Source: Escherichia coli
GTDB lineage: Bacteria > Pseudomonadota > Gammaproteobacteria > Enterobacterales > Enterobacteriaceae
Direction: 5' to 3' (one strand)
Assembly: GCF_041886205.1 (NCBI RefSeq)
Contig: NZ_CP169029.1
DNA length: 64,000 bases
Below are positions 5,023 to 63,870 of the stretch, piece by piece. A program made the translations under genes and the position numbers. The notes beneath the pieces were generated by a model. The model was not told the origin of the DNA, made no database searches, and saw nothing but the letters and a program-made list of their open reading frames with translations. The first letter of the stretch is position 1; each line of letters begins with the position of its first letter.

Positions 5023-5250
5023 AATTGCCTGATGCGCTACGCTCATCAGGCCTACAAAATCTATTGCAACATGTTGAATCTTCGTGCGTTTGTAGGCCGG
5101 ATAAGGCGTTCACGACGCATCCGGCATTAGGTGCTCAATGCCTGATGCGCTACGCTTATCAGGCCTACAAAATCTATTGCAACATGTTGAATCTTCATGC
5201 GTTTGTAGGCGGATAAGGCGTTTTCGCCACATCAGGTAAGAGTGAATTCA
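5023..5250. repeat. Tandem REP/BIME-type intergenic repeats (two ~115-bp copies)
   Basis: The unit gcctgatgcgctacgct(c/t)atcaggcctacaaaatctattgcaacatgttgaatcttc…gtaggc(c)ggataaggcg occurs twice, with imperfect palindromes typical of REP elements. Confidence 0.7.
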
Positions 5251-6897: not shown

Positions 6898-7938
6898 TCA
6901 TTTATCGGAAGACGCCTGCCACAGATTCAGCTCGCCATCGGCGATATGCTGATCAATCTGCGCCAGCTCCTCGGTGCTAAATGTCAGATTATTCAGCGCC
7001 TGCACGTTCTCCTCTAGTTGCTCCGCGCGGCTGGCACCAATCAATACCGACGTCACGCGATCATCTTTCAGCAACCAGCTTAACGCCATTTGCGCCATTG
7101 ATTGTCCACGCTGCTGTGCCATTTCATTCAATAAGCGCAGGCTGTTGAGGTTGGCTTCGGTAAGCATTTTCGGCGTCAGACCACGAACTTTATTCCCTTC
7201 ACGATGCATCCGTGAATCTTGCGGAATGCCGTTGAGATATTTTCCGGTCAGCAATCCCTGAGCCAGAGGAGTAAAGGCAATACAGCCCACGCCGTTATTT
7301 TGCAGGGTATCCAGCAGGCCGCTTTTATCCACCCAGCGGTTCAGTAAATTGTACGAAGGTTGATGAATTAAAAGCGGAATTTTCCACTCGTGCAGCAACT
7401 CGACCATTTTTTGCGTCCGCTCTGGCGAGTAAGAGGAGATCCCGACATACAGCGCCTTACCGCTTTGTACCGCATGAGCCAGCGCAGAGGCGGTTTCTTC
7501 CATCGGCGTATTTTCATCGACGCGATGAGAGTAAAAGATATCGACATACTCAAGCCCCATACGCTTCAGGCTTTGGTCGAGGCTGGCGAGCAGGTATTTA
7601 CGTGAACCGCCAGAGCCGTAAGGGCCGGGCCACATATCGTAGCCAGCCTTGGTAGAGATAATCAGTTCATCGCGATAAGCGGCAAAATCCTCCCGCAGCA
7701 GGCGACCAAAGTTCTCTTCTGCGCTTCCTGGAGGCGGCCCGTAATTGTTGGCTAAATCAAAGTGCGTAATGCCTAAATCAAACGCTTTACGCAGGATTGC
7801 ACGCTGTGATTCCAGCGCGTTAACGTGACCGAAATTGTGCCATAAACCGAGCGATAACGCGGGCAGGCGTAAACCACTTTTTCCGCAATAGCGGTATTGC
7901 ATCTGCCCGTAACGTTCGGGATTCGCTAACCAGACCAT
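6898..7938 (-). CDS. gpr: Aldo-keto reductase (L-glyceraldehyde-3-phosphate reductase) Gpr/YghZ
   Basis: 346 aa, MVWLANPERYGQMQYRYCGKSGLRLPALSLGLWHNFG…, AKR family. Confidence 0.85.
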   Translation of the reverse strand: MVWLANPERYGQMQYRYCGKSGLRLPALSLGLWHNFGHVNALESQRAILRKAFDLGITHFDLANNYGPPPGSAEENFGRLLREDFAAYRDELIISTKAGYDMWPGPYGSGGSRKYLLASLDQSLKRMGLEYVDIFYSHRVDENTPMEETASALAHAVQSGKALYVGISSYSPERTQKMVELLHEWKIPLLIHQPSYNLLNRWVDKSGLLDTLQNNGVGCIAFTPLAQGLLTGKYLNGIPQDSRMHREGNKVRGLTPKMLTEANLNSLRLLNEMAQQRGQSMAQMALSWLLKDDRVTSVLIGASRAEQLEENVQALNNLTFSTEELAQIDQHIADGELNLWQASSDK

Positions 7939-8095: not shown

Positions 8096-8983
8096 ATGCC
8101 GCGTTTAACCGCCAAAGATTTCCCACAAGAGTTGCTGGATTACTATGACTATTACGCTCACGGGAAAATCTCGAAACGTGAGTTCCTCAACCTTGCGGCG
8201 AAGTATGCGGTAGGCGGGATGACGGCATTAGCGTTGTTTGATTTGCTCAAGCCAAATTATGCGCTGGCGACTCAGGTAGAGTTTACCGACCCGGAAATTG
8301 TTGCTGAGTACATCACGTATCCTTCGCCAAATGGTCACGGCGAGGTGCGGGGTTATCTGGTGAAGCCCGCAAAGATGAGCGGCAAAACGCCAGCCGTAGT
8401 GGTGGTGCATGAGAATCGTGGACTGAATCCGTATATCGAAGATGTGGCACGGCGAGTGGCGAAGGCGGGGTATATCGCCCTGGCACCTGACGGCTTAAGT
8501 TCCGTTGGAGGTTATCCGGGAAATGATGATAAAGGTCGTGAGCTGCAACAGCAGGTTGATCCAACCAAACTGATGAATGATTTCTTTGCCGCAATTGAGT
8601 TTATGCAACGCTATCCGCAAGCGACAGGCAAAGTGGGTATTACCGGATTTTGCTATGGCGGTGGCGTATCGAACGCGGCGGCTGTCGCGTATCCGGAACT
8701 GGCCTGCGCGGTGCCGTTTTATGGTCGTCAGGCACCCACTGCCGATGTGGCGAAGATTGAAGCGCCTTTACTACTCCACTTCGCGGAACTGGACACCCGA
8801 ATCAACGAGGGCTGGCCTGCTTACGAGGCGGCGTTGAAAGCCAATAATAAGGTTTATGAGGCGTATATCTATCCGGGGGTTAATCACGGATTCCATAATG
8901 ATTCCACGCCCCGTTATGACAAATCTGCCGCCGATCTTGCCTGGCAAAGGACACTGAAATGGTTCGATAAATATCTCTCCTGA
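8096..8983 (+). CDS. yghX: Dienelactone hydrolase family protein (apparently intact YghX)
   Basis: 295-aa uninterrupted ORF containing a nucleophile-elbow-like GFCYGG motif. I recall yghX as a pseudogene in K-12; that is memory, not a check. Confidence 0.7.
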   Translation: MPRLTAKDFPQELLDYYDYYAHGKISKREFLNLAAKYAVGGMTALALFDLLKPNYALATQVEFTDPEIVAEYITYPSPNGHGEVRGYLVKPAKMSGKTPAVVVVHENRGLNPYIEDVARRVAKAGYIALAPDGLSSVGGYPGNDDKGRELQQQVDPTKLMNDFFAAIEFMQRYPQATGKVGITGFCYGGGVSNAAAVAYPELACAVPFYGRQAPTADVAKIEAPLLLHFAELDTRINEGWPAYEAALKANNKVYEAYIYPGVNHGFHNDSTPRYDKSAADLAWQRTLKWFDKYLS

Positions 8984-9101
8984 TAGGTTTATCTCTTACG
9001 GGATTACGTCTTAAACAAGCATGAAAAAATAGCGTGCGCAAAAGTCGTTCTTTGCCTAAAATATCGCTATATATGGCGATATATAGCGAATGAGGTGAAC
9101 G

Positions 9102-9389
9102 ATGAATAACCATTTTGGTAAAGGCTTAATGGCGGGATTAAAAGCAACGCATGCCGACAGTGCGGTTAATGTGACAAAATTCTGTGCCGATTATAAACGC
9201 GGTTTTGTATTAGGCTACTCACACCGGATGTACGAAAAGACCGGAGATCGCCAGCTTAGCGCCTGGGAAGCGGGTATTCTGACGCGCCGCTATGGACTGG
9301 ATAAAGAGATGGTAATGGATTTCTTTCGTGAGAATAATTCCTGTTCTACGTTGCGCTTTTTTATGGCCGGTTATCGCCTCGAAAATTGA
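9102..9389 (+). CDS. yghW: Small conserved protein YghW
   Basis: 95 aa, [35 protein letters not shown]…, located upstream of the hyb operon as in E. coli. Confidence 0.7.
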
Positions 9390-41470: not shown

Positions 41471-41824
41471 TAGCGTCAAAAAAGCCCCGGCAAGTTTTAT
41501 TGTCGGGGCTATGATAGTAACTGCGGTAGTACATTTATCCCGGAAATAACCGGAGCGATTATCAGGGTTTAACAATATTAAATACCCGTAGCGCATTACT
41601 AGCGGGCCTAAAACAACAATATGGACATCTTAACGATACTCTGCGCCTGCGTGTGCGGAACAGAAACCCTTACCCGATATACTTGTTATGCCAGAGGTAG
41701 CAATTGCGTTAGCGGCGTACTGTTGCTGTAAAGTATAACGTCTATATTTTACAGTTCAGTCCTCTTTTGCTTATTACAACCTTAAGTATATCAAGCATAT
41801 AAAGATAATAAGAGACTGAACAAT

Positions 41825-54239: not shown

Positions 54240-54614
54240 TTATGAGGTGGTTGCGGGTGTCTGTGCCGGATAAACAGCCAGATAAACGTAACCACAGGAG
54301 CCGAGGGTGTCGGCTTCGCAGGTCTGCCCTTTTGCATACAGCGTGACGGTATGCTGATTTCGGGGATTCAGTTCACCGCTGGTGAGCATGAGCTCCAGTT
54401 GTTTCATCAGCAGCGGAAAGGCCTGGTCCAGATGGTATGCATCTGCGTCGCTGAAGCGGCCTCTGATACCGGCGCGGTCGGCAAGGTAATGCAGGCGGTT
54501 ACCCTCCTGCACCAGACGGGCACCAAAACAGGGCCTCACTGTGCAGGGAAGCCCCCACCAGGGGCGGTCGTGATTGTCGTCGGGATGAGTTATCCCGGAG
54601 AGTTTGTCTGACAC
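54240..54614 (-). CDS. cbeA: CbeA/YeeU-family type IV antitoxin
   Basis: [52 protein letters not shown]…, YeeU/YfjZ/YafW family; GTG start. Confidence 0.85.
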
Positions 54615-54776: not shown

Positions 54777-54998
54777 TCAGTTCAGGGTGACGCTCATCAG
54801 CCGGACATACGGGCCAAAACTGTCCTTATGGCGTTCAGCAAACACGGCCAGCACACCGGGAATATCCTGCACTTCACGACCGGTATACGCTTCAGTGCTG
54901 CCGTGCCAGCGGTATTTGCCGGTACAGAAAGGAAAAAGACGGGATGCCGGATGTTGTTGGTGAATACGCATGGCTTCACCACGGGTGATGATTTTCAT
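54777..54998 (-). CDS. yeeT: YeeT/YpjJ-like small protein (DUF987)
   Basis: 73 aa, MKIITRGEAMRIHQQHPASRLFPFCTGKYRWHG…. Confidence 0.75.
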   Translation of the reverse strand: MKIITRGEAMRIHQQHPASRLFPFCTGKYRWHGSTEAYTGREVQDIPGVLAVFAERHKDSFGPYVRLMSVTLN

Positions 54999-55060: not shown

Positions 55061-55552
55061 TTAAAGCAGACCATGTTCGGCAAAGGAGAAAACCTGGTTG
55101 CCACCGACTATCAGATGGTCCGGCACCCGGATATCCACCAGGGCCAGTGCCTGTACCAGACGTTCGGTGATAAGCCGGTCTGCCTTACTGGGTGTGACTT
55201 CACCGGACGGGTGATTGTGTGCCAGCACCACGGCAGCGGCATTGTGATACAGGGCGCGTTTAATCACTTCCCGGGGATGGACTTCCGTGCGGTTGATGGT
55301 GCCGGTGAAGAGGGTTTCACCGGCAATCAGCTGATTCTGGTTGTTCAGATACAGCACCCGGAACTCTTCACGCTCCAGTCCCGCCATGTTCAGAATCAGC
55401 CATTCTCGTGCCGCACGGGTGGAGGTGAAGGCCACGCCGGGTTCATGAAGATGGCGGTCCAGGGTTTTCAGGGCCCGTTGAATGAGACTGCGCTCGCCGG
55501 GCGTCATTTCTCCGGGCAGAAAGGAAAGCTGCTGCATTGTCCCTGCCTCCAT
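55061..55552 (-). CDS. yeeS: RadC-like JAB-domain protein (YeeS/YfjY/YkfG family)
   Basis: JAMM-like HNHPSG motif (…AHNHPSGEVTPSKAD…); 163 aa. Confidence 0.8.
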   Translation of the reverse strand: MEAGTMQQLSFLPGEMTPGERSLIQRALKTLDRHLHEPGVAFTSTRAAREWLILNMAGLEREEFRVLYLNNQNQLIAGETLFTGTINRTEVHPREVIKRALYHNAAAVVLAHNHPSGEVTPSKADRLITERLVQALALVDIRVPDHLIVGGNQVFSFAEHGLL

Positions 55553-56038
55553 TCAGTCGATGATGCGCATAATGGCGCTGCATTCCGGATGCTGCAGGGC
55601 GTAATCCCGCAGCCGGTAATAATGGACCGTCATGGCATAACACTCCGTACGACAGGCGTGATGACTGTACGTCATCAGACAGGCAGCAATGCCGGCGGCT
55701 TCCGGGCTCATTTCAGCGCGGTTGCCGTTCATGGCATTGAACAGTACCCATGTTTCGTCATCATCGTCATCCGGTTCGGGGGCCATAAATGCCCCGCCGT
55801 TGTTCAGAGTGTACAGATTCCAGATACCACCGCAGTAGTCTTCGCACAGACGGTCCATCCAGCCGAAAACACGGGGCTCCAGGGTCACCCACTGTGGAAT
55901 GAGGCCAAAATGCTGCGGCCAGAAGCTGATGCGCTGTTCATCAGGGACTATGGTGGCAACCAACTGAGGCTGGTCATTCCCTGATGCAGCGGTTACGGAA
56001 ACAGAAGATGTGGTGGAATTATGTGAAATGGTTTTCAT
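55553..56038 (-). CDS. Antirestriction protein, KlcA/ArdB family (YfjX-like)
   Basis: 161 aa with the acidic stretch EPDDDDDETW and surrounding sequence resembling YfjX/YeeR-neighbour antirestriction proteins. Confidence 0.7.
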   Translation of the reverse strand: MKTISHNSTTSSVSVTAASGNDQPQLVATIVPDEQRISFWPQHFGLIPQWVTLEPRVFGWMDRLCEDYCGGIWNLYTLNNGGAFMAPEPDDDDDETWVLFNAMNGNRAEMSPEAAGIAACLMTYSHHACRTECYAMTVHYYRLRDYALQHPECSAIMRIID

Positions 56039-56092
56039 GAAATGACTCCTTAAAGGACAAATAAATGCGTGGTTTTCAGGGTAATGGCTGAA

Positions 56093-56911
56093 TCAGCGCA
56101 GGCTCTCCAGCAGGGTTTCCGCCATCACCCACAATGCGCGGTTGAGCTTAATGTCAGTGTCAATGCTGTGAATGGCACGGGTATGGATACGTTTTCCTTT
56201 AGCGCTGCGACCTGAAATTCCGCCTTTCAGCATATTCTCCTGAATGGTCTGATAAGCACTCCACAGGTCCTTACCGTAATCCTCCCGGCGTCGTGGCGTC
56301 AGAATGTCGGCGGTGGTGACGGGCTGATGTTCGTCACCATAACGGTAAGTCAGTGCCGCCTGTGCCAGCGCCTGGCGTGCCGGTGGCGGCAGAATCAGCG
56401 ACTGCATGGCATCACGCTTTTCCTCAATCCGGTCAAAAACCCCCACCACCTCGTAAGCCCCTTCAATGACTCTGTCCACCACATTTCCCCGGTGCGGAAC
56501 ACGCACTTCCCCCAGAGACTGACCACAGACGCATCCGTTCTGGCAGACGAACCTGAAGTAACCCGGCAGCATCTGGTAGCTGGAGGTACCGTCATGAGAG
56601 TTGAGCAGAATAATTTCAGGGACATGTTCTCCGTTTATCTCTCCGGCCCGCCGCAGACGCAGCATGTGTTTTGTGTATCCCCGGCGGCCCGGGTCGCGCA
56701 CACGGGTCTGGCAGGCGAAGAATGGCTGAAAGCCTTCCCGCTGCAGGCTTTCCAGTACGGTGATGGTGGGGATGTACGTATAGTTCTGGCTTCGGGACGT
56801 GTGTTTATCTTCCCCGAAAATCCCCGGCACATAGTGCATCAGTTCTTTGTGTGTCAGCGGACGGTCACGGCGTATCTGGTTCGCATAACCAAAACGACTG
56901 GCTAGTCGCAT
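56093..56911 (-). CDS. DUF932-family protein (YfjQ/YafZ-like)
   Basis: 272 aa, MRLASRFGYANQIRRDRPLTHKELMHYVPGIFGEDKHTSRSQNYTYIPT…; a family that recurs in CP4-type islands. Confidence 0.65.
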   Translation of the reverse strand: MRLASRFGYANQIRRDRPLTHKELMHYVPGIFGEDKHTSRSQNYTYIPTITVLESLQREGFQPFFACQTRVRDPGRRGYTKHMLRLRRAGEINGEHVPEIILLNSHDGTSSYQMLPGYFRFVCQNGCVCGQSLGEVRVPHRGNVVDRVIEGAYEVVGVFDRIEEKRDAMQSLILPPPARQALAQAALTYRYGDEHQPVTTADILTPRRREDYGKDLWSAYQTIQENMLKGGISGRSAKGKRIHTRAIHSIDTDIKLNRALWVMAETLLESLR

Positions 56912-57010
56912 AATTTGCTCCTTATCGGTGGTTAAGATTTACTGGTGTAATAAATGAAAAAGCCACGTCTCCCGGAGAAGACGCGGCCTGATGGGTGAAA
57001 TGAATGACGT

Positions 57011-57244
57011 TTATTGTCTGAGAAGACCGTCACTGGCGAGCCGCGTATTAAGCACCTTTCCGGCATCGGGTTCAGAATTCCGGCAGCACCAGCGTCGCTG
57101 ACCTTCCGCGTTGCGGATAACCCGACGGAAATGCATTCCCGGGTCATCCTGGATAAACACATTGCGGTAAGCGGTTATGACAGCAACCGCCTGCCCGTAT
57201 GAGAAAGATCCTTCAGCCAGGACATACTCTGTGTAACCCGGCAT
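57011..57244 (-). CDS. Small hypothetical protein
   Basis: 77-aa ORF in the island gene string, same strand as its neighbours. Confidence 0.35.
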
Positions 57245-57322: not shown

Positions 57323-57778
57323 TCAGTTAACGTTTTTTCCGGAAACGGTAATCAGCAGTGGATGGTAGTCCTGGGGATTGAAAACCGATAACGGCAGACT
57401 GACACGATGGCCGTTACTTTCTTCAGTTGCTTTAATGATTTCGGTTGTGGCGACATTTTCCACGCACTCCGTTTCCAGAAATGCGTCTGTGGTTCGCGTG
57501 GCATTACTGTCACCAAAAGCTTCCGTTTCCATTTTTCTGGTCACCAGCGTCTGACCATATTTGTCTTTGAGTTGCAGAGTGATGGTGAGGGGGCCAAATC
57601 CTTCATCGTTTCCGCCATTATCCAGCCGGAACTGGTAAGCACAAATATTTCCCGGGAGCCATATCCTATCTGTATTGCGTATACTGATGTAACGTTGATC
57701 CTGTGCCCGGAGTGGGGCAGACCACGTTAACCCCAGAATGAAGGCGGTAATCATGCAGGTTTTGAACAGGTGAATCAT
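57323..57778 (-). CDS. Hypothetical secreted protein (signal peptide)
   Basis: 151 aa with an N-terminal hydrophobic signal ending …WSAPLRAQD. Confidence 0.5.
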   Translation of the reverse strand: MIHLFKTCMITAFILGLTWSAPLRAQDQRYISIRNTDRIWLPGNICAYQFRLDNGGNDEGFGPLTITLQLKDKYGQTLVTRKMETEAFGDSNATRTTDAFLETECVENVATTEIIKATEESNGHRVSLPLSVFNPQDYHPLLITVSGKNVN

Positions 57779-57853: not shown

Positions 57854-60376
57854 TTATGCCGGTAACTCCGGGGGTAATGCTTCTTCCAGTCGGTTAACCA
57901 TATTGCCGAGATGGGATGCATCATATTCCATGACGGGGCGTTGCCTGATGATACTGACCACCAGTGGTTTGATTAACATATTGGTCGCGGCCCGTTGTTG
58001 TATACCGGCGGCGAAAATGATCTCCAGAGCATTCTGATCGATAACACGGGCCAGATTCTCGTTCAGATTTTCAATCTCATGTCCGGTCAGCAGGAAACTG
58101 CCGGCAAGCCATGTCACCTGCTCCTGAATCATTGCCAGAATTTTGACGCGATCTTCTTCAACCAGCGCTCCGGCAATTTTTCCTGATACAGCGGAGGCAA
58201 TCATTCCCCCCAGAACACCGCCAACCACACGCCCTGTCAGTGCACCAAATGGTCCCAGTGGACTGAACAGTATCCCGCCCGCCACTGACCCGACAGCTCC
58301 ACCTGCCACACCGGAAGATGCCACGGCAAGATTCCTGATGAACTGCGTACCGGAGATCCGTCCCCGCAACATTTTGATCATGTCAGGGCCGGTTGTGACA
58401 GCTACCAGTGCCAGAGATGTCACCAGCGTACCCTTCATCACTTTGTTCAGGGCACTGATATTTCCTGCACCGGTCCCCTTCTGAAGAGCCAGTCGGACAG
58501 TCGGGCTGGCAGTCGAAAAATCAATGTGCTTCAGCATACCCTGAACAACACTGAGCCGGTGGAGTTGCTGGGTTGTGACGTAGACAGCCAGTGTGCGGGT
58601 GAAGGTTTTTCCTGCCTGGACAGCAGCTGTCTGCAGGGCAGCATCGCGATCGCCGGTGCTGAGCCAGAAGACCGATGCCGTCAGGGCAAAACTGATCCCT
58701 CCGGCCGCCAGACTGACAACCGAACCCTCGGCAATATCATAAGTGACCGATTCGATGGTCCCGAACCGGGTGATATTACGGGCCTGAGTATAAGTCAGAT
58801 GTCCCCGACGAATCAGCCGGGACGCTTCTGCGGGATCGGTTACACCGGGTACTTTACCTTCGCGGATCTTATTCCTCATGGTTTCAACAGCGCCGGCATA
58901 CTGATCACGGGGGACTTCCAGTTGCATGGGGCCATTATTTCCCATGTAACGATACTGTCCGTTTTGTCCGTCGAATGCCGCACCGACGCTACGGGCTGCA
59001 GTTGAACAATATTTCGTCTGGATTTCTGTTCCGCTGACCAGTCTGTCTGCTCCATTTCTGGCATTATTATCACCGAGGATCCGTGCGTTTTTCAGACGGA
59101 CTCTGTCGACAATATGGTTTCCCCGTTCAGCGGCAAACCCATGTCCCTGCCCTCCGGAAGCAAACATTTTCTCATTTGTACTCCAGGTTTCCGGCAGTTT
59201 CATGAGAATCAGACCATTCGCCGTTGCATCGGAAATAAAGCTGTTGTAAGGGCGTTCATAAATTTCCTGACACAGTGTTTCTGTTTCGCGACAAAGAGAG
59301 GAGCAGTACCATTCCGGATCCGGCTTATGATTTTCCGGGGCATGATGTACTTCTGTCAGCCCGCAGGAGGCACAGATACGAAGCTCATCCACGTGATGGA
59401 ATGATACAAAACGGCGACCTTCTGAAAAGGGATACCAGTCACCGCCGTCCAGGCAACGATCGAGAAAATCGTCATTCGCTTCCGGTGATAAATTCAGGCG
59501 GTTCCGGAAGAGCGTTTTCAGTTCATCAGGTGTGAATGACAGGTTCTCTTTCAACTGTTCGTTAAACCCTGCCATGTTTCTTTCATACCAGGCATTGTTC
59601 AGTAACCAGTTTCCGTCTGCCAGTTCAAATTCCCTCAGCTCTCCCCGGGAAATCCGTTGAGAAATGAGCGTCAGCCAGATGCGCTCCGTCAGTGAGTCAG
59701 GAAGGCTGTAATCGTTTTGCAAACTGGTCAGCCACGATTTACTGTTGAGCACCGGTTGTTCTTCCAGTGTCTGGCTGATGGCACAGGTCAGTTTTTTCAG
59801 CGCCTGGATCTGGCTGGCCGCCCATAGCAGCGTCACTAATGCAGCCAGCCAGTACAACAACCCGCCCCACCACATCAGTGACGGTGAAATATCGTACTGT
59901 AACGCGATCAATGGTGCGCATGCAGAACACGCCATAAGGAAAAAGGCAGTATAAAAACAGCAGTAATACCCGTTAATTTCCTTGCTGATATCTTCTGGTG
60001 TGATCCCGTTCTGCTGAATGTTTTTGATCTGCAGGGGAACAGCCAGCAGACCACCGGCGAGAGCGGTGGTCAGAATAAATTTCACAGAGTCAAAGGTGTG
60101 AGCCTCCAGCGCGATATGTTTACCATCAAGTCCCCACATGAAGCTGATGATCATTCCGGCAATCGTCAGAAATACGCCTGCCAGCCAGCGAATATGGAAC
60201 AACCGGGTTATGCGTTCGGTGATATAGCCAGCCAGTAAGGCCGGGCCGAACAGACACAGCAATATGAGCCCTGCCAGCGCAGAAGCCGTGCTGATTAATG
60301 CTCTGAACAAAAGGCGAAGAATGGCAAATCCTGCGATCAGCAGGATCAGCGCGCCGACTATCTGTAACATAGTCAC
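57854..60376 (-). CDS. yeeR: YeeR-like large inner membrane protein
   Basis: 840 aa: N-terminal transmembrane helices, a Cys-containing central region (…CASCGLTEVHH…WYCSSLC…), and a C-terminal Gly/Ala-rich glycine-zipper-like segment (GGAVGSVAGGILFSPLGPFGALTGRVVGGVLGG). The N-terminus matches YeeR of CP4-44. Confidence 0.7.
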   Translation of the reverse strand: MTMLQIVGALILLIAGFAILRLLFRALISTASALAGLILLCLFGPALLAGYITERITRLFHIRWLAGVFLTIAGMIISFMWGLDGKHIALEAHTFDSVKFILTTALAGGLLAVPLQIKNIQQNGITPEDISKEINGYYCCFYTAFFLMACSACAPLIALQYDISPSLMWWGGLLYWLAALVTLLWAASQIQALKKLTCAISQTLEEQPVLNSKSWLTSLQNDYSLPDSLTERIWLTLISQRISRGELREFELADGNWLLNNAWYERNMAGFNEQLKENLSFTPDELKTLFRNRLNLSPEANDDFLDRCLDGGDWYPFSEGRRFVSFHHVDELRICASCGLTEVHHAPENHKPDPEWYCSSLCRETETLCQEIYERPYNSFISDATANGLILMKLPETWSTNEKMFASGGQGHGFAAERGNHIVDRVRLKNARILGDNNARNGADRLVSGTEIQTKYCSTAARSVGAAFDGQNGQYRYMGNNGPMQLEVPRDQYAGAVETMRNKIREGKVPGVTDPAEASRLIRRGHLTYTQARNITRFGTIESVTYDIAEGSVVSLAAGGISFALTASVFWLSTGDRDAALQTAAVQAGKTFTRTLAVYVTTQQLHRLSVVQGMLKHIDFSTASPTVRLALQKGTGAGNISALNKVMKGTLVTSLALVAVTTGPDMIKMLRGRISGTQFIRNLAVASSGVAGGAVGSVAGGILFSPLGPFGALTGRVVGGVLGGMIASAVSGKIAGALVEEDRVKILAMIQEQVTWLAGSFLLTGHEIENLNENLARVIDQNALEIIFAAGIQQRAATNMLIKPLVVSIIRQRPVMEYDASHLGNMVNRLEEALPPELPA

Positions 60377-63610: not shown

Positions 63611-63819
63611 CAGCTTTTCCTTACAGAGGGTGAATAAAAAAGCCGGTACCCACAAATGTGGATACCGGCAGGTACAAAACAGCATGGTCAGATAAAGTGG
63701 TTTTTCCCGGACATAAATGCTTCCCCTCTCTCATCCGCCAGAGAAGTATCAGTCCGTTGTGTGCAATTCCGTTCTGCATGATGAAGAGATTCAGCTGCCT
63801 TTTCGCAGACCATTAACCA

Positions 63820-63870
63820 CTATAAACGATCGATAGTAACGATCGATACCTGTTTTATCGATCGTTTTAT
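63820..63870 (-). promoter_or_regulatory. agn43 phase-variation switch: three GATC (Dam) sites in the OxyR-binding region
   Basis: GATC at 63827, 63840 and 63859 within aaacGATCgatagtaacGATCgatacctgttttatcGATCgtttt, about 220-250 bp upstream of the flu start. Confidence 0.7.

Follow-up and report, generated by a model that had tools for sequence, protein, structure and literature searches.

The DUF932, ArdB and RadC-like genes of an Escherichia coli CP4-44-type island most likely form the front of a conserved, hairpin-bounded gene block

In E. coli K-12, the CP4-57 genes lfgABCDE encode an antirestriction protein, a RadC-like protein, a DUF987 protein, an antitoxin and a toxin, and have been described as one operon (PMC10846083). 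Repression by the host antitoxin MqsA, which binds ca. 245 bp upstream of lfgA, characterises this operon; LfgB was reported to be a zinc protease, and purified LfgB degrades MqsA; its authors caution that the protein is barely soluble and that background proteases cannot be strictly excluded (PMC10846083). Other analysts predict a role in nucleic acid processing for JAB domains of the RadC type, and some Firmicutes have proteins that combine a RadC domain with an ArdC antirestriction module. A six-gene linkage group that includes antirestriction and "DNA repair" genes was found in 4-6 copies per genome (PMC6480617).

In Type I restriction enzymes, whatever their family, it is the nuclease activity that ArdB inhibits. 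The ArdB/KlcA proteins are small and acidic, with 15-18 kDa and a pI of ca. 4.6-5.1 in Table 1 of PMC2836571, and in vivo Type IA-ID restriction is relieved by ArdB-CFT, YafX and YfjX (PMC2836571). ArdB acts regardless of the recognition site and leaves a Type III system and BREX unaffected (PMC10149784), and the protein of plasmid R64 directly inhibits one Type I enzyme in vitro (PMC12429846). Anti-defence islands in the leading regions of plasmids were described by Samuel et al. 2024 (PMC11541004).

We analysed a window of 64,000 nucleotides from E. coli, in which a trio of DUF932, ArdB/KlcA and short RadC-like JAB genes is carried by a CP4-44-type island on the chromosome. All three open reading frames were confirmed and lie on the minus strand, as an earlier note on this DNA had stated, and its three family assignments hold as well, the matches to Pfam PF06067, PF03230 and PF04002 being far above the thresholds. 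The trio is followed by five further genes, so that the block reads DUF932, ArdB, RadC, DUF987, CbeA antitoxin, CbtA toxin, DUF5983 and DUF957 (Table 1). The locus matches E. coli ZYB39 at 100%, and RefSeq annotates the whole block in that strain. The eight reading frames are uninterrupted and have good ribosome-binding sites, and the spacers from ArdB through RadC, DUF987 and CbeA to CbtA measure 15, 62, 162 and 46 nt. The placement of the trio between a YeeR-like gene and the toxin-antitoxin pair is right as to order, yet not direct, as IrmA and DUF905 lie upstream and DUF987 separates RadC from the antitoxin.

Table 1. Positions of the block genes, neighbouring genes and sequence signals in the window
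Feature	Position	Strand	Remarks
IrmA	57323-57778		Upstream of the trio and DUF905
DUF905 protein (YkfF type)	57011-57244	minus	Directly upstream of the block; Pfam PF06006, E 2e-16
GC-rich hairpin, 13 pairs, then T-run	56960-56989	minus	Terminator scan; upstream block boundary
DUF932 protein	56093-56911	minus	272 aa, pI 9.5; YfjQ/YafZ/YubP family
ArdB/KlcA-family antirestriction protein	55553-56038	minus	161 aa, pI 4.7
GGAGG ribosome-binding site for RadC	55546-55550	minus	Within the ArdB-RadC spacer; read from sequence
Short RadC-like JAB/JAMM metalloprotein, YeeS/YfjY/LfgB type	55061-55537	minus	158 aa
DUF987 protein (YeeT/YpjJ type)	54777-54998	minus	Next gene in the block; Pfam PF06174, E 3e-38
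CbeA/YeeU-family type IV antitoxin	54240-54614	minus	Pfam PF06154, E 8e-54
CbtA/YeeV-family toxin	53816-54193	minus	Pfam PF06755, E 7e-60; RefSeq coordinates from the identical strain
Hairpin and T-run after DUF957	53056-53082	minus	Terminator scan; downstream block boundary

Long plus-strand ORFs run antisense to the trio (55073-55984 and 56327-56905); they have no Pfam match and were treated as spurious. Rfam detected no RNA family within the trio and an IsrC (IS102) RNA upstream of Ag43, and no tRNA genes were found in the window. None of the DUF932, ArdB, RadC and DUF987 proteins matched a defence-system protein model in PADLOC.

The start of the RadC gene had to be corrected. The abutment of the ArdB and RadC genes at 55552/55553, reported earlier, is an artefact of choosing the longest ORF: the junction reads TGA-ATGGAGGCAGGGACA-ATG, a second ATG follows at 55537, and the GGAGG motif stands 8 nt ahead of the latter, which is also the RefSeq start in ZYB39. 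The ATG upstream of it, at 55552, is an unlikely start. The true spacer of 15 nt belongs to the modal class of 8-15 nt, seen in 22 of 38 orthologous loci.

The ArdB protein covers its full Pfam profile (positions 1-92; 127.4 bits at a cut-off of 25, E 2e-37) and, with 18.2 kDa and a pI of 4.74, lies inside the range of the small, acidic family. It matches the structure of ArdB from E. coli CFT073 (PDB 2WJ9; E 1e-100, ca. 90% identity overall) and, over the full length, that of KlcA (2KMG, E 8e-21), and it is 69% identical to K-12 YfjX/LfgA. By analogy with close homologues, in which the role is proven, the anti-restriction label would fit only this member of the trio.

For the RadC-like protein, strong matches were obtained with Pfam PF04002 (153.4 bits against 22.1, E 3e-45), TIGR00608 (149.5 against a cut-off of 133.85) and PDB 2QLC (E 1e-25). 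A full-length RadC/YicR protein is recognized by a match to the equivalog NF000642 that includes the N-terminal helix-hairpin-helix region and exceeds the cut-off of 180 bits; here the score was 161.8, and only profile positions 88-211 of 212 aligned. The protein can hence be classed, from its profile coverage, as the short type of mobile elements and not as the full-length chromosomal RadC/YicR. The zinc-binding JAMM motif is present, with the glutamate in HPRE followed by H-x-H-x7-S-x-x-D (HNHPSGEVTPSKAD), and 69 of 71 orthologues share the latter pattern.

DUF932 aligns with the entire Pfam profile (1-227 of 227; 176.8 bits at a cut-off of 23, E 7e-52), and its ATG is preceded at 7 nt by the ribosome-binding site AAGGAG. 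It is 74% identical to K-12 YfjQ, and its closest plasmid homologue, at 62%, is YubP, encoded beside oriT of F-like plasmids. Phage proteins of the DUF945/TIGR03299 type share the same fold. A sequence search of the PDB gave nothing meaningful and thus no solved structural relative, the BFVD search returned only other DUF932, DUF945 and TIGR03299 proteins, and literature searches for yubP gave only unrelated matches. The protein is basic, and its invariant His, Cys, Arg and Asn residues, R87, C123, N125, H140 and R208 among them, form a cluster; it may be a metal- or nucleic-acid-binding protein. DUF932 proteins are among the commonest uncharacterised proteins of plasmids and islands and, given a confident predicted fold, are a reasonable target for functional study.

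Of 5,426 complete E. coli genomes, 4,333 have the contiguous trio; the median is three places per genome, and the places number 13,570 on chromosomes and 7 on plasmids. A scan with a 12-sequence DUF932 alignment, a 69-sequence alignment being too divergent, further located the block at 80 loci in a range of Enterobacterales species. Two remote DUF932 proteins, at 43% and 38% identity, had no ArdB, RadC or toxin-antitoxin neighbours; they sat on short metagenome contigs, and the synteny was for this reason not extended past the Enterobacterales. Of 72 Enterobacterales loci, 66 have RadC after DUF932 and 41 have ArdB (tblastn E <= 1e-5 and at least 50% coverage, which very divergent copies could escape). 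The gene order is held across genera at 52-83% protein identity.

Two features of these loci set the limits of the trio. ArdB is optional in the block: it is missing from 28 of the 66 loci that retain DUF932, RadC and the toxin-antitoxin pair, and in these DUF932 and RadC are separated by only ca. 100-120 nt. RadC, on the other hand, is tied to the genes downstream of it. DUF987 trails it by -3 to 21 nt in 40 of 43 loci, and in all 23 loci without DUF987 the antitoxin directly follows (-20 to 9 nt), a spacing from which translational coupling of RadC to DUF987 or the antitoxin is predicted.

The limits of the block itself appear to be marked by hairpins. The upstream one ends 48 nt ahead of the DUF932 start, and together with a second hairpin at 57298-57270 it brackets DUF905. 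Among 76 distinct upstream regions of orthologues, 74 have a stable hairpin at the matching position (median z -4.2 and median MFE -23 kcal/mol, with 64 different stem arms), and one also precedes K-12 yfjQ. In the terminator scan, this short stem of 13 pairs was the sole structure found upstream of the block, and no comparably strong minus-strand hairpin was detected from 56960 to 53082. No sigma-70-like promoter for the block was predicted on the minus strand between 53000 and 57800, the block interior included; the totals of promoters and terminators in this region do not exceed those of shuffled sequence. If termination at the upstream hairpin is real and efficient, DUF932 may be poorly expressed. 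Generally, we consider it very likely that the trio represents the front three genes of a conserved, hairpin-bounded block of the CP4-44 type, and not a dedicated anti-defence operon.

A different role would follow if the block were a domesticated stress module of the host, in which RadC degrades MqsA and so derepresses rpoS (oxidative, acid and heat stress), with ArdB as a passenger. We regard this as possible but doubtful. Deletion of lfgB in K-12 led to H2O2 sensitivity that could be complemented, and the binding of MqsA upstream of lfgA and its degradation by LfgB point in the same direction (PMC10846083); the present RadC is 78% identical to YfjY/LfgB, and most E. coli genomes contain several copies of the block. 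However, these data concern a single paralogue of one strain and carry the caveats on protease purity given by the authors, and with three block-matching places in the median genome the MqsA link is uncertain for the present copy. The region that corresponds in position to the K-12 MqsA site is DUF932 coding sequence here, and the conservation across genera on mobile islands fits a function at the level of the element.

A more far-reaching proposal treats DUF932, RadC, CbeA and CbtA as one functional system, conserved throughout the Enterobacterales, with ArdB and DUF987 as optional members. RadC would then be an additional, integral part of the type IV toxin-antitoxin module, with toxin, antitoxin or a host protein as a possible substrate; in DUF932 the system would have a protein for entry or anti-defence, so far uncharacterised and derived from plasmid leading regions, and the upstream hairpin would gate expression. 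In this complete form we consider the proposal unlikely.

The earlier note had suggested that the trio is an operon that helps the island to establish itself against restriction, which in its full form would make it a dedicated operon, all of whose products counter host restriction or other defences, and had stated that the three families recur together in CP4-type islands and in the leading regions of mobile elements. The recurrence is borne out for the islands. On plasmids it applies to single homologues: the three families do occur in leading regions, where anti-defence genes are enriched, but among at least 5,000 plasmid records with DUF932, of which 4,470 are conjugative, the trio is contiguous in just 34, several of them mislabelled chromosomes. 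F-like plasmids have KlcA and DUF905 in the same region as YubP, and pOXA-48 has RadC, KlcA and DUF4942 near ssb. Judged by protein identity (RadC 60%, KlcA 28-33%, DUF4942 41-45%, and 44% for a DUF905 gene adjoining ssb in an F-like leading region), the block genes are homologous to genes that are scattered over the leading regions of conjugative plasmids. The anti-defence reading stands for ArdB, which was tested in the ca. 90% identical protein (PMC2836571), and it could draw on the ArdB-RadC spacing of just 15 nt, the RadC-ArdC fusions in Firmicutes and the full trio at 38 of the 72 cross-species loci. The trio is not self-contained, however: ArdB is dispensable, RadC is coupled to DUF987 or the antitoxin and is co-transcribed with them in K-12 (PMC10846083), and yfjQ lies 6.4 kb upstream of lfgA in CP4-57, with a gap of at least 2.5 kb in 15 of the 41 ArdB-bearing loci. 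As the literature found reports no anti-defence activity of DUF932 or RadC either, a dedicated operon appears very unlikely.

That the block is the decaying remnant of a defunct element, with genes that look intact but have no current function, is highly improbable: an IS110-family element (ISSfl8) does interrupt the DUF4942 gene nearby and no promoter was predicted, but all eight frames are intact, and the RadC motif and the gene order are kept across genera, which indicates purifying selection.

If the trio is the front of the larger block, as we favour, its members would have separate tasks. ArdB would shield the unmodified DNA of the island against Type I restriction in a new host, the toxin-antitoxin pair would stabilise the island, and RadC would be a protease acting on the toxin-antitoxin proteins or a host protein, not on restriction enzymes. 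Any entry event that would call for ArdB is hypothetical, because no relaxase, type IV secretion or other transfer genes are present in the annotated 47 kb; ssb is also missing near the block. A role of the trio in island establishment is thus one that we infer. The corrected reading places RadC with the toxin-antitoxin genes and leaves ArdB alone as anti-restriction protein. As a whole, the block is ordinary, already described and very common in the cryptic prophage islands of E. coli: thousands of annotated genomes contain it, the antirestriction protein has been solved by crystallography and assayed in vivo, and the operon was studied in K-12.

Compared with the leading regions of conjugative plasmids (F-like plasmids; IncL/M pOXA-48), the locus has homologous families, likewise co-oriented. 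A leading region comprises the first ORFs on the leading side of the oriT/relaxase of a conjugative element; the present locus is chromosomal, and shares with such regions a known anti-defence gene, ArdB, among neighbours that are all on the minus strand. On the plasmids the genes lie apart, with ssb, psiAB and parB-like genes between them over 10-15 kb, and it is DUF3085, not ArdB, that precedes RadC. The ArdB of pathogenicity island II of CFT073 (2WJ9; Serfiotis-Mitsa et al. 2010, PMC2836571) is likewise an acidic protein of ca. 18 kDa from the same kind of chromosomal island. It is identical at 137 of 138 residues over positions 24-161 and diverges in the first ca. 23 residues, including a 4-residue indel. 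The island is of the type of K-12 CP4-44 (flu-yeeR-yeeS-yeeT-cbeA-cbtA-yeeW) and of the E. coli 042 cluster flu-yeeR-irmA-aec70-aec71-yeeS-yeeT (PMC6480617), with Ag43, a YeeR-family gene and IrmA, and then the block. The YeeR-family protein has 840 aa here, and K-12 CP4-44 has no DUF932 and ArdB genes. The lfgABCDE operon (yfjX-yfjY-ypjJ-yfjZ-ypjF) differs in the distant position of its DUF932 gene, which is adjacent here. In both, ArdB, RadC, DUF987, CbeA-family and CbtA-family genes follow each other in the same orientation and order with similarly short spacers, at protein identities of 69, 78, 62, 67 and 63%, and a hairpin with a T-run stands just ahead of the first gene.

The earlier note had placed genes for a DUF932 protein, an antirestriction (ArdB/KlcA) protein and a RadC-like JAB protein side by side and in one direction. 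All three ORFs, on the minus strand, match their Pfam families (DUF932, Antirestrict and RadC) over the whole profile, so that this gene content is real; long antisense ORFs overlying the trio were discarded, having no family match. The impression that the antirestriction and RadC genes abut (55552/55553) arises solely from choosing the longest ORF for RadC. A GGAGG ribosome-binding site lies 8 nt 5' of the second ATG at position 55537, which is also the RadC start in RefSeq for a 100%-identical genome. Between the ArdB stop and this start the window reads TGA-ATGGAGGCAGGGACA-ATG; among orthologous loci, spacers of 8-15 nt form the modal class.

Features of the island and its surroundings
Feature	Coordinates	Strand	Evidence or position
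naRNA4 (REP-derived)	5095-5165; 16139-16215		Rfam
C0719 sRNA	41525-41746	-	Rfam; between glcB and glcA
Wadjet (JetABCD)	43920-50605	+	four genes; adjoins island end
DUF4942 gene	51096-53025	-	cut in two by ISSfl8
ISSfl8 transposase	51662-52666		IS110 family
Hairpin + T-run	53082-53056	-	strong; 3' of DUF957
RadC longest ORF	55061-55552	-	Pfam RadC, E 3e-45
ArdB ORF	55553-56038	-	Pfam Antirestrict, E 2e-37
DUF932 ORF	56093-56911	-	Pfam DUF932, E 7e-52
Hairpin + T-run	56989-56960	-	strong; 3' of DUF905, ends 48 nt before DUF932 start
Hairpin + T-run	57298-57270	-	strong; 3' of IrmA
YeeR-family membrane protein	57854-60376	-	840 aa; upstream of trio
IsrC (IS102) RNA	63629-63865	-	Rfam; upstream of Ag43, overlaps its longest-ORF start, as in CP4-44

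The island around the trio is of the CP4-44 type, and E. coli strain ZYB39 matches the surrounding 7.5 kb at 100% identity. In the RefSeq order of transcription, Ag43, a 2.5-kb hypothetical gene (YeeR family), IrmA, DUF905 and DUF932 are followed by the antirestriction protein, RadC, DUF987, a YeeU-family antitoxin, the CbtA toxin, DUF5983, DUF957 and a split DUF4942. Neither the YeeR-family gene nor the toxin-antitoxin pair therefore adjoins the trio: IrmA and DUF905 intervene upstream, and DUF987 separates RadC from the antitoxin. The YeeR-family protein lacks a solid Pfam domain; PDC-M09B, a candidate defence model of PADLOC, matches it weakly (E 5e-6, 4e-5). Both DUF4942 halves still match PF13708; in the pOXA-48 leading region a homologue with 41-45% identity is intact. 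The window also holds, left of the island end, glc genes and an intact Wadjet anti-plasmid system, with ORFs of 498, 254, 1095 and 394 aa, the last matching DUF3322 and JetD_C; the corresponding system of strain CFIAFB20190167 is degraded.

The strong hairpins suggest the limits of a putative transcription unit. From DUF932 to DUF957 the scan for hairpins with a T-run found no comparable structure on the minus strand, and no sigma-70-like site was predicted on this strand between 53000 and 57800. Upstream of DUF905, DUF932 and DUF4942, GC-rich hairpins with a T-run lie 15-50 nt before the respective ribosome-binding site, a spacing into which a promoter cannot fit. Among distinct orthologous upstream regions, 74 of 76 carry a stable structure before DUF932 (median -23 kcal/mol, median z -4.2), yet its stem arms occur in 64 different versions; hence the structure and its position are conserved and the sequence is not. 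It may serve as a terminator, as an attenuator or to stabilise the 5' UTR. In the K-12 island CP4-57 a hairpin also precedes yfjQ, and a similar one precedes lfgA. With this layout the trio makes up the 5' part of a block of eight genes bounded by hairpins, rather than an operon of its own.

Gene order was compared in a scan with one genome per species, which gave 80 loci from many Enterobacterales genera, 72 of them with at least 3 kb downstream and used for the counts. RadC lies downstream of and co-oriented with DUF932 in 66 of the 72, while ArdB is present in 41 and all three genes in 38. In 28 loci DUF932, RadC and the toxin-antitoxin pair occur without ArdB, for which the DUF932-RadC gap of about 100-120 nt has no room, and of the 41 loci with ArdB, 15 have it at least 2.5 kb from DUF932, as in CP4-57. 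Downstream, RadC is followed by DUF987 (gap -3 to 21 nt; 40/43 loci) or directly by the antitoxin (gap -20 to 9 nt; 23/23 loci). These gaps indicate that RadC is coupled to the toxin-antitoxin genes, and ArdB is the facultative member; both points weaken the reading of DUF932-ArdB-RadC as a dedicated three-gene anti-defence operon.

RadC itself is of the short mobile-element type: against the full-length RadC model it aligns just with the C-terminal JAB half, and it scores below the cut-off. Of 71 orthologues, 69 retain its metal site H-x-H-x7-S-x-x-D (HNHPSGEVTPSKAD), and it is best described as a putative conserved JAMM metalloenzyme whose place is with the type IV toxin-antitoxin pair and DUF987. 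It shares 78% identity with K-12 YfjY, now called LfgB, which is reported to act as a zinc protease on the antitoxin MqsA and to degrade it; the authors themselves noted solubility and possible background proteases as caveats (PMC10846083). Other analysts predicted that JAB domains of the RadC type process nucleic acids. A host-domesticated stress role of the block is a weaker reading, its support coming from one paralogue in one strain, and simple decay is contradicted by the intact frames and conserved catalytic residues. On IncL/M plasmids a DUF3085 gene lies immediately 5' of the RadC/JAB gene (8433-9366 in a pOXA-48-type plasmid), and a 2026 paper predicted that the two form a complex. 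In chromosomal islands ArdB or DUF932 occupies this place, and the gene order suggests that RadC works with a variable upstream partner.

ArdB is best regarded as a probable Type I restriction inhibitor, since it nearly equals a protein that has been tested, ArdB of E. coli CFT073, whose crystal structure is known (E 1e-100; about 90% identity overall, and 137 of 138 residues the same in positions 24-161). Identity to K-12 YfjX is 69%. In vivo, ArdB-CFT, YfjX and YafX alleviated restriction by each of the four Type I families, but in vitro they did not inhibit EcoKI (PMC2836571). A later study found ArdB action independent of the recognition site, with a Type III system and BREX unaffected (PMC10149784), and for the ArdB of plasmid R64 direct in vitro inhibition of one Type I enzyme from Bacillus was described (PMC12429846). 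DUF932 is an uncharacterised basic protein (pI 9.5) with a confident AlphaFold2 model (pLDDT 92) and a fold common to phage DUF945/TIGR03299 proteins; residues invariant in a 69-sequence alignment include R87, C123, N125, H140 and R208. On a metagenome contig a homologue with 43% identity (7001-7816) has NUDIX and NAD-dependent DNA ligase genes as neighbours, and none for ArdB, RadC or a toxin-antitoxin pair; the Enterobacterales synteny may therefore not be valid for distant family members.

The 1.85-kb trio, at a coverage of at least 80%, is found in 4,333 of 5,426 complete E. coli genomes, at a median of 3 places per genome (13,570 chromosomal places vs 7 on plasmids). Plasmids carry homologues of the single genes: DUF932 in at least 5,000 records, 4,470 conjugative among the matches listed, and RadC in 2,334. 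On F-like plasmids the DUF932 homologue YubP adjoins yubQ and oriT, with KlcA and DUF905 in the same co-oriented leading region, and on pOXA-48 RadC occurs with DUF4942, Hha, KlcA and ssb. The proposed recurrence holds for CP4-type islands and, in leading regions, for the families; the contiguous trio appears in only 34 plasmid records, several of them megabase "plasmids" that are really chromosomes. Kinship to leading-region genes makes it plausible that the block aids island survival on entry into a new host; since no transfer functions were seen near it in the annotated neighbourhood, this role is one we infer.

The trio is best interpreted as a standard copy of an already known island block, the observation being confirmed and the earlier note's interpretation partly supported. 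A 2018 catalogue described pheV, pheU and selC islands with KlcA, YafZ, YkfF and YeeS-YeeV, and the K-12 paralogues have been treated as one operon, lfgABCDE (PMC10846083). On plasmids, DUF905 near psiB and RadC beside DUF3085 have been noted, and anti-defence genes are over-represented in leading regions.
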